From Candidatus Thorarchaeota archaeon (GTDB lineage: Archaea; Asgardarchaeota; Thorarchaeia; Thorarchaeales; Thorarchaeaceae): a stretch of 28,583 nucleotides of DNA. Position 1 is the first letter of the stretch. Each line of letters opens with the position of its first letter. The translations under genes were made by a program, and so were the position numbers. Positions 1 to 13,744 of this stretch are shown here, in pieces. The DNA is taken from positions 1 to 28,583 of the forward strand of contig JBHLRS010000040.1 in the NCBI GenBank assembly GCA_048882325.1, given 5' to 3'. Below the pieces are notes generated by a model, which was given only the letters and a program-made list of their open reading frames with translations, ran no database searches and was not told where the DNA came from.

Positions 1-152
1 GTTGAGCCTTTCTTAGACCTGAGGGCATTCTGACACTCCTCGTGCCAGTCTATCTCACGTCCGCATCTTGTACTCGCGTCTGGAAATCACCAGCCATCAT
101 CGCTTGGCATTCGCCGACAGCATCCGGCCTGACACCGTATGACGCGAAAGCA
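1..152 (-). ncRNA. 5' portion of a putative structured stable-RNA transcript (possibly a pre-rRNA leader), truncated by the window edge
   Basis: Minus-strand BRE/TATA-like GGAAAGCTTTTTATT at 174-188 predicts a start near 151. TCGCGTC (74-80) and GACGCGA (141-147) can pair. The region is GC-rich and has no convincing ORF. Identity not recognised. Confidence 0.35.
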
Positions 153-173
153 AACCCTCCCGCGAAGAGTTCG

Positions 174-188
174 AATAAAAAGCTTTCC
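174..188 (-). promoter_or_regulatory. archaeal BRE + TATA box
   Basis: Minus strand reads GGAAAGC-TTTTTATT, a purine-rich BRE followed by an AT-rich TATA element. Confidence 0.5.
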
Positions 189-369
189 AAGGGGCGACGT
201 CTCTAGGAATAATTTGACACAAATTTCATCATTTTTAGCTTTTGCTCAAAATCTTTGTATATTCCATCAGTGTTCACCTCCGCACATCAATAAATGCATT
301 AGAGCGAACCTTCATATCTTTGACAAGAGGTGTTGGGAGGTAGGAACCAATACTTTAGGGTAGAGAGAG

Positions 370-2973
370 ATGACTGATTTTCACAAGTATCTTGAGATTC
401 TGATACGAGATGGGATACATGAAGCGGAGAGTATGCTTGCTGCAGACAGGGAGGATTTCACATTTCCCACAGCAAAACCACAATGGGCACCTCCGCGTCA
501 TTACGAAATTCAAAATCTAACTATGGATTGGAGGATAGACATCAAGGACGAGCATGTTGATGCAATATCTAAATTGAAAGTCGTAAGCATTGTTCCAGAA
601 CTAAAGAGAGTCTTTTTGCATGCAGCGGAGCTGAAGATTGAGAGTATTACTGATGAAAAGGGGAACAGGCTAACCTTTGAGATGATGCCAGATGATCAAG
701 CAATGTTTGTTGATCTGAAGTTTCCATTGGCGGACGGTGAAACCGAGGTATTGACCTTTATTTATGAAATAGATCATCCTCAGTCAGGGATCTTCTTTAC
801 AAATCCTTGTCCTGAGTTTCCAGACATTGAATCAAGTGCATGGACACAAATGCAGGATGATTACGCTCGCTATGTTGTTCCAATCTATGATAATCCAAGC
901 CATAAATTCCCAACGGAAACAATTCTGACGGTTCCTCAGGGATTCTATGCCATGAGCAATGGATACCTAAAGGAACGAAAAGTAAACGATGACAGAACAG
1001 AAACCTTTCATTGGATACAGGAGTTACCAATTCCTGCGTACCTCATGACAGTGGCGGCTTCAGAGTATGTAGAATACAAAGACGATGCGGATGGTCTTGA
1101 GGTCAGCTATTATGTTCACAAGAGGTGGGATAAAGAAACCGTCTATCGATCCTTTGGAAAGACTCCTGAAATGGTGAAGTTTTTTGAATCAAAGTTAGGT
1201 GTGAAGTACCCTTGGGCGAAATACGCACAAGTAACAGCAGCTAATTTTCTGATAGGTGGTATGGAAAACACTAGTGCAACCACACAGACAGACGGGACTC
1301 TTCATGATGAGAAAACACACAGGGACTTTGAGTCAGATGGTCTGGTGTCTCACGAACTAGCGCATTCTTGGGGCGGTGACCTAGTTACATGTCGTACATG
1401 GTCCCATGGTTGGCTAAATGAAGGGTGGGCTACTCAAATGCAGAATGAGTGGAAACGTCATGACAAAGGAGATGAGGAATACCTCTATGACCAATACGGT
1501 AAGCAGCAATCATACTTCGATGAGGACAAGAAGCGCTACCGTCGACCTATCGTGAAGAATGAATGGGAACGTGGATCAGATGTCTTTGATGCGCACCTGT
1601 ACCCAGGAGCGGCATGGAGATACTATATGCTAAAACACCTGGTTGGTGAGGCCCGATGGTGGATGATTCTTGGAGAATGGATGACTCGTTTCTCACACAA
1701 ATCTGTATACACACATGACCTTGAAAGCCTGTTTACAGAGATGACAGGAGAGGACTATGGCTGGTTCTTCCAGCAATGGCTTTACAGAGCAGGATACCCG
1801 GAGTGTAAAATCAAAGTTACACACGATGATGATTTAGGACATGCCCAGGTGAGAGTCGAACAGATTCAGAAGAGTGATGATGGGATGACTCCCGATGTTT
1901 TCAGATTTCCGTTGACTGTAGAGTTTGTAAGTGATAATGGGGAGAGAACCAGGTACACAGTTCAAGTGACAGAGAGAGTTCATGGATTCTACTATCCAAT
2001 CAAAGACAAACCCAAACAGGTGATCGTCGATCCAGATTATGCAACTCTGATGGATTGGACAATTGAGAAACCAGAGCAAATGTGGATTGATCAACTGTTA
2101 GATGGGACCAACACAATCCAGAAGATCAAGGCTGCTCAGGCTCTAGGTAAAAAAGCAACTCGCAAGGCAGTCGAAGCTCTCGGAAAAGCCCTTCTTGAGG
2201 AGGAGTTTTGGGGAACACAGGTTCAGATAGCAAAAGTGCTTGGGTCTTTGAAATCAGAAGCTGCATTAACTCAGCTACTGAAAGCAACTTCAGTAAAGAG
2301 TACAAAGGCACGCACTGCAGTTGCTAGTGCACTTGGTCAGTTTTACAAAAGCGATAATGCCTTTGATGCTCTCAAGAAACTGCTTGAAGATACTGAAAGT
2401 TATTTTGTTGTTGCAGCTGCTGCAACTGCTATTGGCCAGACCCGGCATGATGGCGCCTTTGATTTCTTATCCAAATATCTAGAGAGTTGCCCCGCTAGTT
2501 GGCATGATGTCCTCGAGATTGGATGTCTTCAGGGGCTTGCAGAAACAGAGAAAGAAGAGGTTATCGATATTGCGAAGCAATATCTCAAACTTGGAACCAG
2601 TGACTGGATTAGAAGACACATTCCAGGAATTCTTGCTAGACTCGGGAAACGCTACAAGAAAACGCATCCTGAGATTCTGTCCATTCTAGAAGGAGCCATT
2701 CAGGATAATTCATACAGAGTGAAACAATATTCCTTGCCTGCAATTTCAATATATGAGGATGCTGCACTTATTCCTGCACTCGTGAAGCTGGCTGAAACCT
2801 CTGCAGAGAGTATATTGGTCAGACGAGCACGAGTAGCAATACGAAATCTCAGTAAGAAGAAACAGCCGCAAGAGATTGATTCACTGAAAAAGAGTATCGA
2901 GGAACTACAGAAGGAAAATAGGGACCTCAAGGATCGTATAGATAAGATTGAGGCAAAACTGGAGAAAGAATAG
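370..2973 (+). CDS. M1 family zinc aminopeptidase with C-terminal HEAT repeats and coiled coil
   Basis: GGMEN motif, HELAH-x18-E zinc motif, candidate catalytic Tyr in HLYPGA, HEAT-like repeats (AAQALGK, IAKVLGSL, VASALGQF, AATAIGQ) and a heptad-rich C-terminus. Confidence 0.92.
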   Translation: MTDFHKYLEILIRDGIHEAESMLAADREDFTFPTAKPQWAPPRHYEIQNLTMDWRIDIKDEHVDAISKLKVVSIVPELKRVFLHAAELKIESITDEKGNRLTFEMMPDDQAMFVDLKFPLADGETEVLTFIYEIDHPQSGIFFTNPCPEFPDIESSAWTQMQDDYARYVVPIYDNPSHKFPTETILTVPQGFYAMSNGYLKERKVNDDRTETFHWIQELPIPAYLMTVAASEYVEYKDDADGLEVSYYVHKRWDKETVYRSFGKTPEMVKFFESKLGVKYPWAKYAQVTAANFLIGGMENTSATTQTDGTLHDEKTHRDFESDGLVSHELAHSWGGDLVTCRTWSHGWLNEGWATQMQNEWKRHDKGDEEYLYDQYGKQQSYFDEDKKRYRRPIVKNEWERGSDVFDAHLYPGAAWRYYMLKHLVGEARWWMILGEWMTRFSHKSVYTHDLESLFTEMTGEDYGWFFQQWLYRAGYPECKIKVTHDDDLGHAQVRVEQIQKSDDGMTPDVFRFPLTVEFVSDNGERTRYTVQVTERVHGFYYPIKDKPKQVIVDPDYATLMDWTIEKPEQMWIDQLLDGTNTIQKIKAAQALGKKATRKAVEALGKALLEEEFWGTQVQIAKVLGSLKSEAALTQLLKATSVKSTKARTAVASALGQFYKSDNAFDALKKLLEDTESYFVVAAAATAIGQTRHDGAFDFLSKYLESCPASWHDVLEIGCLQGLAETEKEEVIDIAKQYLKLGTSDWIRRHIPGILARLGKRYKKTHPEILSILEGAIQDNSYRVKQYSLPAISIYEDAALIPALVKLAETSAESILVRRARVAIRNLSKKKQPQEIDSLKKSIEELQKENRDLKDRIDKIEAKLEKE

Positions 2974-2983
2974 AGGAAGAGGT

Positions 2984-3067
2984 GATGGAAGGGCGGGGCG
3001 ATACCCCGCCACTCACAGCGGTTCAGGATTATTGACCGCTTCCTGCAGTTGTCGGTCGCTTCCATCC
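2984..3067 (-). ncRNA. candidate small structured RNA of unknown family
   Basis: Terminal 8-bp helix GATGGAAG/CTTCCATC, 7-bp hairpin GGCGGGG/CCCCGCC and 6-bp helix AGCGGT/ACCGCT. A minus-strand TATA (TTTATATT, 3089-3096) lies about 26 nt upstream of 3067. Confidence 0.5.
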
Positions 3068-3088
3068 AAGATAGTATAGAGAAGTTTG

Positions 3089-3096
3089 AATATAAA
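3089..3096 (-). promoter_or_regulatory. TATA box for the candidate small RNA (possibly bidirectional)
   Basis: Reads AATATAAA on + and TTTATATT on -. Spacing fits a minus-strand start at ~3067. Confidence 0.45.
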
Positions 3097-3117
3097 GTAA
3101 TGATGAACGAATTGTCA

Positions 3118-3189
3118 GGATGATTCGTCCAGTAAAACCATCCGCGAATTATGTCATAGATTCATCCAAAAGCCATAGATGATTCATCC
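3118..3189. promoter_or_regulatory. repeated palindromic operator-like sites GGATGA-T-TCATCC
   Basis: GGATGATTCGTCC (3118-3130), half site GATTCATCC (3159-3167) and AGATGATTCATCC (3177-3189), upstream of an operon encoding a wHTH protein. Confidence 0.55.
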
Positions 3190-3236: not shown

Positions 3237-3878
3237 ATGCAACCCAGTTTACTGCCACTGATTAGATTGGACCTACTCTTTGAGGTATTCAGTGGTATAA
3301 TTGCACTCATCGTGACCATATTTGCCACCAAAGCATACAATCTGACAGGGCAGAAGAAACTCCAAGATCTCTCAACAGGATTCCTTGTCCTTTCTGCAGG
3401 GATGTTTGGGAGAGTAATAGGAACGTGGTATTTCATTGTCCAGTTTGGACTAACGGACCCCTCAGGTCTTCTGATTTTTTCGATTGTCACGATAGCATAT
3501 GGTGTTTCCAGAATAATGGCGTATGTACTCTTCGTGATAGCAACAAGACCAGCACGTCACCGAGGACCTGTCAACAATGAGGACATGAATGGTCTAGATC
3601 TACTTCTTATAGCCACCGTACTTGTGGATCCCAATTTAGAGGTCATTGCAATACTCGTCCTCATTGTGGTTGTTCTTCAAGCAGTTGTAAACTACATTTC
3701 AACACGCAGTGAGTTAGCATTCTTTGTACTACTTGGATTCTTTCTCATTCTTTTGAGTCATATACTGGTTGCTCAGACTTTTGCGAATCCTACAATGTAC
3801 CTATCAAGTCAGCTGACTCAATTCTTAGGTTTCTTGTCACTACTGGTCATGCTAGTAAGGGCAGGCAGAGTAGAATGA
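3237..3878 (+). CDS. multi-pass membrane protein (about 6-7 TM), function unknown
   Basis: Multiple hydrophobic segments, AGGAG Shine-Dalgarno upstream, ATGA overlap with the downstream wHTH gene. Confidence 0.8.
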   Translation: MQPSLLPLIRLDLLFEVFSGIIALIVTIFATKAYNLTGQKKLQDLSTGFLVLSAGMFGRVIGTWYFIVQFGLTDPSGLLIFSIVTIAYGVSRIMAYVLFVIATRPARHRGPVNNEDMNGLDLLLIATVLVDPNLEVIAILVLIVVVLQAVVNYISTRSELAFFVLLGFFLILLSHILVAQTFANPTMYLSSQLTQFLGFLSLLVMLVRAGRVE

Positions 3879-4168
3879 GTAGAAAACGGGCCTATCGCTC
3901 AAAGATGCGCATCCTAGCTGATATGATGCGTGCCATCCAGAGTGAGGGTGAGGAAGGATGTGGTCCGACTAAGATACTCTACGCCGCGAATCTCTCACAT
4001 GACCGATTGACACAGTATCTCGATGAACTGGTTGAGAAAGATCTAATTCGAGAAACGAATCCTGAGAATGACAATAGAGTATATTTCCTCACTGAGAAGG
4101 GCAGGGAGTTTCTCAGAGAGTTCATCAGAATAGAACGTTTCTCCGAGGCTTTTGGAATCGAGATCTGA
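3875..4168 (+). CDS. winged helix-turn-helix transcriptional regulator (archaeal COG3432-like)
   Basis: Pattern RSKMRILADMM...PTKILYAANLSH...YLDELVEKDLI...YFLTEKGREFL is typical of this archaeal wHTH family. Confidence 0.88.
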   Translation: MSRKRAYRSKMRILADMMRAIQSEGEEGCGPTKILYAANLSHDRLTQYLDELVEKDLIRETNPENDNRVYFLTEKGREFLREFIRIERFSEAFGIEI

Positions 4169-13626: not shown

Positions 13627-13744
13627 GCCGAGGTAGCCAAGCGGTCAACGGCGACGGACTCAAGATCAATCAATAGTCGCCAGACTCTGATGAGACATCC
13701 GTTCTCGTAGGGGTTCGGGAGTTCGAATCTCCCCCTCGGCACCA
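13627..13744 (+). tRNA. tRNA-Leu(CAA) with 32-nt canonical 37/38 intron (13665-13696); CCA encoded
   Basis: Acceptor GCCGAGG/CCTCGGC, anticodon stem ACGGA/TCCGT, long variable arm, T-arm GGGAG-TTCGAAT-CTCCC and ACCA end. BHB has CTCA/TGAG helix with AGA and ACA bulges. TATATT at 13596-13601 upstream. Confidence 0.96.

Follow-up and report, generated by a model that had tools for sequence, protein, structure and literature searches.

To our knowledge, few non-coding RNAs of Asgard archaea have been described beyond the universal ones. The described RNAs that come closest to the one considered here belong to several classes. The tRNA minihelix and the tRNA-like RNAs (the tmRNA domain, mascRNA and YrlA) have a terminal helix whose 3' strand bears a stacked hairpin. 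Archaeal box C/D small RNAs (sRNAs) carry a box C (RUGAUGA) and a box D (CUGA), and the kink-turn or k-junction is the ligand of protein L7Ae. U3 small nucleolar RNA (snoRNA) counts among the trans-acting factors of pre-rRNA, and 6S RNA, CsrB and Y RNA are stable RNAs with a conserved surface that copies the natural ligand of a protein. In the present study, a stretch of 28,583 nucleotides (nt) from Candidatus Thorarchaeota archaeon (assembly GCA_048882325.1, contig JBHLRS010000040.1), referred to below as the window, is shown to encode on its minus strand, at positions 3066-2984, a folded RNA of about 85-95 nt. This RNA is a candidate for a new family and matches no curated one; it is single copy and confined to the Thorarchaeia branch of Asgard archaea. 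It is very probable that the locus is a functional RNA gene. What the RNA does is a matter of more tentative reading, discussed below in connection with the neighbouring gene of 16S rRNA.

All coordinates are given in plus-strand numbering of the whole window, the RNA itself lying on the minus strand; genomes, contigs, loci and genera bear our own labels (G, C, L and g, respectively). From its 5' end the RNA consists of the 5' strand of helix P1, the single strand J1/2, hairpin P2, the GA-containing linker J2/3, hairpin P3 and the 3' strand of P1. P1 is a perfect helix of 8 base pairs (bp), in which GATGGAAG (2984-2991) complements CTTCCATC (3059-3066) on the plus strand. P3 comprises 7 bp formed by GGCGGGG (2992-2998) and CCCCGCC (3004-3010) and is stacked on P1 with zero nt between them, and the base of P2 pairs AGCGGT (3017-3022) with ACCGCT (3035-3040). 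An earlier sequence-only reading of the same DNA had proposed these helices, and all its pairings were found where it had placed them. The 3' end of the RNA reads ..CUUCCAUC-A-CC and is followed by a pyrimidine-rich tract that is the probable termination zone.

The folding of the single sequence beats its shuffles only moderately (z about -2.5 for either strand), and the GC island is modest (G+C of 56% versus a background of ~43%). It is the comparison with relatives, rather than the fold of one sequence, that places the element beyond chance. In a structure-blind MAFFT alignment of 21 same-genus sequences, compensatory changes occur in 6 of 20 pairs versus 1.6 expected, and none of 500 shuffles of this alignment reached the observed values in four of five measures. 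Among 55 family-wide sequences, the alignment of which was fitted to a covariance model, compensatory changes are seen in 11 pairs and pairing in 96% of cells; slid controls gave at most four pairs with such changes. In P1, 99.8% of cells are paired in this alignment; the changes there comprise one compensatory replacement of G-C by U-A and five wobbles. P2 shows covariation at all 5 base pairs, and P3 has compensatory changes at 5 of 7 pairs and a loop that varies in length and sequence. RNAalifold recovered P1 and P3 unaided from a fresh MAFFT alignment of 40 sequences, and the P2 hairpin folds independently in each of the 55. Wobble cells include 29 G-U versus 5 A-C overall and 13 versus 1 within P1 and P3. 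This excess of G-U over A-C indicates that the folding strand is the minus strand of the window. Purifying selection is shown to act on RNA structure and sequence alike, and the structured minus-strand RNA predicted from the letters alone has been borne out by covariation and wobble asymmetry.

The same asymmetry disposes of a plus-strand element, either in the 3' untranslated region of the convergent peptidase gene (Table 1) or a SECIS element of that gene, as it points to the other strand. A small peptide gene was also considered: an open reading frame (ORF) of 121 amino acids (aa) on the minus strand (2700-3065) has its start within P1 and lies antisense to the peptidase gene. This reading was rejected because insertions and deletions in the loops of P2 and P3 are not multiples of three.

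Table 1. Positions of the RNA, its parts and the associated features (window coordinates unless a locus or contig label is given)
Feature	Position	Strand	Remarks
RNA gene (covariance-model match)	2978..3072	-	full-length, 105 bits; single copy in genome
RNA core, first to last paired base	2984-3066	-	
P1, 5' strand	3059..3066	-	GAUGGAAG in RNA; partner 2984-2991
J1/2, conserved single strand of 18 nt	3041..3058	-	CGACCGACAACUGCAGGA
P2 hairpin	3017..3040	-	base AGCGGU/ACCGCU, distal part variable
J2/3, linker of 6 nt	3011..3016	-	GUGAGU; family consensus n-U-G-A-A-n
P3 hairpin	2992..3010	-	GGCGGGG/CCCCGCC, loop 2999-3003
P1, 3' strand	2984..2991	-	CUUCCAUC
3' tail ACC, then pyrimidine/U-rich tract	2955..2983	-	overlaps last codons and stop (2971-2973) of convergent peptidase gene
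TATA box	3089..3097	-	CTTTATATT on minus strand; ends 22 nt before first paired G
Inverted repeat ACGAAT-N10-ATTCGT	3107..3128	.	just upstream of TATA box
M1 aminopeptidase gene with HEAT repeats	370..2973	+	Pfam match; convergent, between RNA and 16S promoter in most genera
16S promoter and start of leader	1..195	-	TATA at 174-183; 75% identity to G065 leader, family-wide leader alignment
Secreted-protein genes (examples)	L008:939-1493; L050:948-1508		17 other loci in addition
16S-tail hairpins	L102 (G063); L109 (G075); L110 (G089); L106 (G091); G055:C535:4189-4224; G060:C15:5875-5909		
Arrays of 16S 3'-end copies	L189 (G075:C14:41500-50500); L190 (G017:C205:125500-137500); L191 (G001:C30:1-10500)		copies 2-7 kb apart
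Zinc-ribbon protein genes	L100:445-885; L104:459-950; L109:605-991; L106:432-764		

The BLAST search found one copy in the genome of the window and full-length matches in about 20 of 24 same-genus genomes, with an identity of 71-93%. A covariance model built from the same-genus sequences located one full-length copy in 69 of the 86 family genomes, representing 14 of the 16 genera. Beyond the family, the class adds just one more genome. A second model, built from the 55 family-wide sequences, had no match in 124 genomes of 26 other Asgard families. The expected conservation with covariation among Asgard relatives was found, and it extends across Thorarchaeia. A pattern scan of 185,579 species (one genome each) gave 46 archaeal records, all of which, where a lineage is named, are assigned to Thorarchaeota, Promethearchaeota or Hermodarchaeota, the others being labelled just 'archaeon'. 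The scan also gave seven bacterial loci that score at most 28 bits by the model versus 44-112 bits for true members. Weak model matches at L080-L082 are coding sequence, hence false positives. In genera g21 and g28, no homologue was detectable by the model. Genus g28 retains a decayed relic between the secreted-protein and peptidase genes (L113:1580-1700 in G092 and L114:1668-1783 in G093), which reads GGUGGAAG...CUUCAACC, has a different P3 and a 22-nt insertion, and in which the strands corresponding to J1/2 and J2/3 pair over 8 bp.

Across the 14 genera, the near-invariant parts are the whole of P1 (GAUGGAAG/CUUCCAUC), the P3 stem (GGCGGG/CCCGCC), the ACC after P1, the motifs A-C-C-G-A and C-U-G-C of J1/2 and the GA of J2/3. 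Within J1/2 (..ACCGACAACUGCAGG..), the CGA and CUGC positions are 93-98% conserved; the GA of J2/3 is conserved at 85-87%, and tail positions A138, C139 and C140 at 87-98% (A 87%, C 98%, C 91%). Variation is free in the distal part of P2 and in the loop of P3. In G013, P2 is reduced to 5 bp closed by a loop of 6 nt; it is missing from genus g27, the copies of which are nonetheless syntenic.

Pairing between CGA(C/G) of J1/2 and (G/C)UUG of J2/3 is seen in three groups (L048-L052; L063, L065, L086), together with a compensatory change from C-G to G-C; the genus of the window allows just two of these J1/2-J2/3 pairs. For some genera, pairing of the GA of J2/3 with the J1/2 CGA is possible. A junction with sheared tandem G-A pairs, similar to a k-junction, is possible but imperfect. 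The conserved GAs of J1/2 and J2/3 and the coaxial stack of P1 and P3 fit the kink-turn topology, but the bulge would be of 5 nt with an extra 2-nt linker instead of the expected 3-nt bulge; besides, some genera show Watson-Crick pairing in another register, and g27 lacks both GAs. The pseudoknot suggested from the letters alone is not supported: its crossing complement CAGGA/TCCTG is present in the window but conserved in just part of the genus.

The search of Rfam 15 (4227 families) gave no match at the gathering threshold. At E up to 10, a C/D snoRNA (E = 2-3) and others appeared at chance level, with at most 25 bits versus thresholds of 45-55. In the literature, no description of such an RNA was found. 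A variant of 5S RNA, RNase P RNA or signal recognition particle (SRP) RNA was rejected, as all three are present elsewhere in the genome; contig C46 carries the genuine 5S gene (66.5 bits) and the RNA locus has no 5S match. The likeness to archaeal box C/D sRNAs includes the 5' end, which in most genera reads AUGAUGG and is close to box C, as well as CUGC and UGA further in and a similar size. However, AUGAUGG is fully paired in P1 with covariation, and there is no CUGA box D at the 3' end. An H/ACA sRNA would end in ACA, not ACC, and the P3 hairpin occupies the 3' side of its 'pocket'. As for a Y RNA bound by Ro, the TROVE domain (PF05731) was not found in the genome of the window, which is 93% complete.

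The layout of the element recalls a tRNA: after an acceptor-like helix come an 18-nt 'D region', a first arm, a 6-nt 'variable loop', a second arm that stacks on the acceptor and finally A-CC, so that the four-part topology is common to both. The tRNA genes of this genome carry unusual introns, and tRNA-Ala encodes CCA. Nevertheless, it is very improbable that the element is a tRNA-like RNA or a heavily interrupted tRNA gene that is processed by RNase P and RNase Z and CCA-tailed. ARAGORN and the Rfam tRNA model give nothing, even at E up to 10, and the expectation of no Rfam or tRNA match thus proved correct. The stack of P1 and P3 comprises 8 (or 9) + 7 bp, 15 bp in total, versus 7 + 5 or 12 bp in tRNA, and the tail is ACCU, not ACCA. 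The P3 loop of 4-9 nt is unconserved, which leaves no T-loop; there is no D-arm, and the would-be anticodon loop in P2 differs between sister species, is of 6 nt in G013 and is missing in g27 along with P2, which leaves no anticodon. The tRNA-like layout of the sequence-only reading is not supported, for these reasons. At 13627-13741 of the plus strand, the window contains a long-arm tRNA gene (Rfam, 46.5 bits) that ARAGORN misses and that has a 35-nt insertion after the anticodon region.

The promoter of the RNA is conserved. A CTTTATA(T/A) box precedes P1 by 21-30 nt in 23 of the 55 loci, in five genera including that of the window, which upholds the TATA promoter proposed earlier. The inverted repeat listed in Table 1 is the window's version of a motif, GACGAATCAT...TCGTTCAT, that is kept ahead of the TATA box in other genera; it is a probable operator for the RNA promoter. 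GA(C/T)GAATCAT motifs recur at 3107-3189, between this promoter and the operon of DUF7521 and a winged helix-turn-helix (wHTH) protein, and this segment is likely an operator because its TATA-adjacent part is conserved in other genera. The intergenic region also serves that divergent operon, which encodes a DUF7521 membrane protein and a winged-helix regulator (window 3875-4168).

In at least 19 of the 55 loci, a gene for a protein of ~183 aa (177-212 aa) lies between the promoter and the RNA, and the RNA has no TATA box of its own. The protein has an N-terminal membrane anchor or signal sequence, ends in ..GRIHR(V/I) and belongs to no Pfam family. Its stop codon is 0-13 nt from P1 or within the AUGAUGG motif. 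It seems from this arrangement that in these loci the RNA is probably co-transcribed with the secreted-protein gene. Consequently, the earlier description of the RNA as stand-alone is accurate for part of the family but not for these loci. In G014, the promoter of the window and its first transcribed bases are intact 571 nt further upstream, just ahead of the secreted-protein gene, so the arrangement of the window represents a precise loss of that gene. Within single genera, the gene is present in some species and absent in others, which indicates that it was lost repeatedly while the promoter and RNA were kept, and this in turn indicates that the RNA is selected in its own right. Genus g28 is the reverse case, the secreted-protein gene being kept and the RNA decayed.

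These data bear on the suggestion that the element acts in cis, as a terminator, stabiliser or processing signal of the secreted-protein gene or as an insulator of the convergent genes, and is a relic where the gene has been lost. The close spacing behind the stop codon in loci without a separate TATA box fits this suggestion, as do the U-rich tracts that follow P1 in most loci and the peptidase stop codon abutting the other side. However, at least five genera lost the protein gene and kept the promoter with an intact RNA at the right distance, and g28 kept the gene without an intact RNA. Moreover, a terminator needs no invariant 18-nt strand, invariant stem sequence or three-way junction. We consider a role of this kind unlikely.

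The position of the RNA relative to the 16S rRNA gene is constant: in 31 of 31 genomes with both on one contig, the RNA is on the 16S strand, 387-4170 nt upstream of the gene. The peptidase stop codon abuts the RNA 3' end, and the RNA still precedes 16S where the peptidase gene is missing (G071, G075, G082, G068, G022 and G067). The contig of the window breaks inside the 16S leader; the contigs of many relatives likewise end a few kb from the RNA, which the adjoining 16S promoter and leader account for. Apart from 5S, the genome of the window lacks rRNA genes. The 16S and 23S genes are unlinked. The 16S promoter (CCCUUGGAAAGCUUUUUAUU) and the ~330-nt leader are highly conserved across the family, and the leader holds a segment GCGAUGAUGG..UGAUUUCC. 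Four genera have, just downstream of the RNA and on its strand, a gene for a multi-CxxC zinc-ribbon protein of 110-163 aa with sub-threshold Pfam matches. As to possible partners of the RNA, neither this protein nor the upstream 183-aa one gave an informative Pfam match.

The two ends of the RNA resemble the 3' end of 16S rRNA. The Thorarchaeia 16S gene ends ..GCUGCGGAUGG-AUCACCUCCU. The RNA starts with GAUGGA, the first 6 nt of P1, which is also found in the 16S tail, and ends with AUCACCU, which equals 7 nt of that tail; the 16S tail, divided at one point, thus corresponds to the two ends of the RNA. Precisely at this point, a hairpin of ~30-35 nt is present in the 16S genes of G063, G075, G089, G091, G055, G060, G001 and G002, and its stem is the same GAUGGAAG/CUUCCAUC as P1. 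The contig of G057 breaks right after GAUGGAAG. The hairpin, an insertion flanked by GGAUGG and AUCACCUCCU, immediately precedes the anti-Shine-Dalgarno sequence; it is perfect and has no bulge-helix-bulge. No description of this 16S-tail hairpin was found in the literature. It may be a retained expansion rather than an intron, because the bulge-helix-bulge motif is lacking. For the RNA, a bulge-helix-bulge intron was rejected, P1 being a perfect 8 bp without bulges both there and in the hairpins. The hairpin and the RNA have in common the identical 8-bp stem followed by an A..UCACCU tail on the 16S strand. The hairpin is of ~35 nt, lacks J1/2, P2 and P3, is located after helix 45 and before the full anti-Shine-Dalgarno sequence, and occurs in several copies, whereas the RNA, at 83-90 nt, is found once per genome, is read from a promoter of its own and contains neither helix 45 nor the CCUCC core. 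More small insertions were noted in the 16S 3' domain (L106/G091, L110/G089, L109/G075, L103/G042), for example inside GUCGUAA^CAAGG and in helix 45 of G042. A length of 2.1-2.4 kb in some 16S genes indicates that these rRNA genes carry several insertions or introns.

Hairpins with the P1 stem occur 1-4 per genome in 26 of 86 genomes and 8 genera, and a reversed-pattern control matches 2 genomes. Introns of 23S were rejected as an explanation for the extra short hairpins, since no large-subunit rRNA match surrounds them. Each of the extra hairpins is situated in a partial copy of the 16S 3' end of ~200 nt, comprising helix 45, the hairpin, the anti-Shine-Dalgarno tail and the trailer, and each partial copy comes after a short accessory-gene segment in the same orientation. 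The accessory genes encode PIN toxins (three), a P-type metal ATPase, an HNH nuclease, an AlkZ-like glycosylase, transporters and a methyltransferase. Judged from the sequences, these copies resemble an array of cassettes or the outcome of repeated integration at the 16S 3' end; the ORFs checked near them included no recombinase.

The copies raise the question of whether the element acts as a hairpin in single-stranded DNA, that is, as a recombination or attachment site of the integron attC or MITE/REP type. The P1 stem is common to the ~35-nt hairpins beside accessory genes, it is exactly at the edge of P1 that the upstream gene is either present or missing, and folded DNA also tolerates G-T wobbles. 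However, neither its own genome nor those of relatives have more than one copy of the full element, which speaks against a REP, MITE or attC repeat, and the element is fixed in place across 14 genera; only its closing stem has dispersed copies, none of them assembled in the genome of the window. The check for dispersed copies that had been proposed thus has a divided outcome, clear for the RNA as a whole and positive for its stem. Besides, the interior sequence is conserved, unlike that of attC sites, and no intermediate-size elements closing with the P1 stem were found. The distance of the TATA box is that of a promoter, genes for an integrase or transposase were not seen next to the RNA, and the short hairpins lie inside transcribed 16S genes. 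A DNA-level function is improbable in view of these facts.

As for the function of the RNA, the search for pairing partners was largely negative. No conserved complementarity of any part of the RNA to 16S, its leader, its trailer or 23S was found, which speaks against a C/D or H/ACA guide. The sole partial match in the 16S leader, CCGACA/UGUCGG, falls within a hairpin of the leader; this hairpin covaries internally and has been lost from other genera. Pairing near position 665 of 16S (10-12 bp) is seen in some genera, has A-C mismatches in others and is of chance-level energy. No conserved partner of J1/2 was found in 16S, the leader, 23S or complements in same-genus genomes.

It is conceivable, although rather unlikely, that the RNA is a trans-acting sRNA that pairs with mRNAs via J1/2 or via the 3' ACCU-pyrimidine tail under the winged-helix regulator. 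The exposed 18-nt strand is near-invariant, the operator is conserved, the promoter region is common to the operon of the membrane protein and the wHTH protein, and the tail AUCACCU complements ribosome-binding sites of the GGUGAU type and resembles an anti-Shine-Dalgarno sequence. However, the exact 11-nt complements of J1/2 outside the RNA gene in 28 same-genus genomes (34) barely exceed those of a reversed-pattern control (22), and 20 that were sampled are not mutually homologous and reveal no conserved mRNA target. Complements of J1/2 with up to 2 mismatches are at chance level in the window's genome, and the AUC of the tail is paired in P1. The lack of extended rRNA complementarity and of a conserved mRNA target argues against a guide or antisense role.

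With low confidence, we favour a stable protein-bound particle rather than an antisense guide. Its recognition surface would be the invariant P1-P3 stack together with J1/2, and the variable tips would serve as spacers. Recognition by a protein is suggested because the helices and the single strand are invariant, the tips are dispensable and a pairing target is lacking. The RNA may imitate the 3' end of (pre-)16S rRNA, and by binding a factor that handles this end it would titrate or recruit it. Such a factor might be a 3'-end maturation nuclease or chaperone, or a factor binding the anti-Shine-Dalgarno sequence; the output of the RNA might be set by the neighbouring winged-helix regulator. 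The reading was reached because the ends copy the 16S tail, an identical stem occurs in some 16S tails and the linkage to 16S is unbroken. The proposal of a mimic of the pre-16S 3' end that engages a factor working at this end is tentative. A stricter version is doubtful, namely that of a dedicated mimic of the pre-16S 3' terminus acting in trans in small-subunit maturation or anti-Shine-Dalgarno availability, with its stem copied into some 16S tails.

Several observations weigh against this mimicry. The tail of the RNA lacks the CCUCC core of the anti-Shine-Dalgarno sequence, and the RNA is wider in distribution than the inserted 16S hairpins (14 versus 8 of 16 genera). The likeness to the 16S tail amounts to 13 nt and 3 further stem pairs and was noticed post hoc; it could stem from shared ancestry or recombination between neighbouring loci and not from function. 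The block of DUF7521, secreted protein, RNA, peptidase and 16S is kept even in g28, where the RNA decayed, and the synteny of the RNA with 16S may simply have been inherited with this larger block. The ends of the transcript given here are predicted ones.

In mode of working, an RNA of this kind would be comparable with 6S RNA, CsrB and Y RNA, being likewise stable and offering a conserved surface that copies the natural ligand of a protein; there is no relationship of sequence or structure to them, and the likeness is one of working mode, not of membership. Like U3 snoRNA and other trans-acting pre-rRNA factors, it is small and genetically tied to the small-subunit rRNA gene, here in an archaeal lineage near eukaryotes, but it lacks boxes A/A', B, C and D and conserved complementarity to the 16S leader or body, and it is far smaller than U3. 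If the stricter version of the mimicry is true, the archaeal lineage nearest to eukaryotes would possess an RNA cofactor of ribosome biogenesis that belongs to neither the C/D nor the H/ACA class.

A covariation-backed, class-wide, single-copy RNA with a regulated promoter is a clean candidate for a new family. It has also led to two oddities of Thorarchaeia, a hairpin in the otherwise universal 3' tail of 16S rRNA and scattered copies of the 16S 3' end by accessory genes. The adjacency to 16S and the 16S-tail-like ends give a concrete and testable hypothesis on ribosome biogenesis, and should the link to 16S fail, the RNA remains a defined target for Asgard transcriptomics.

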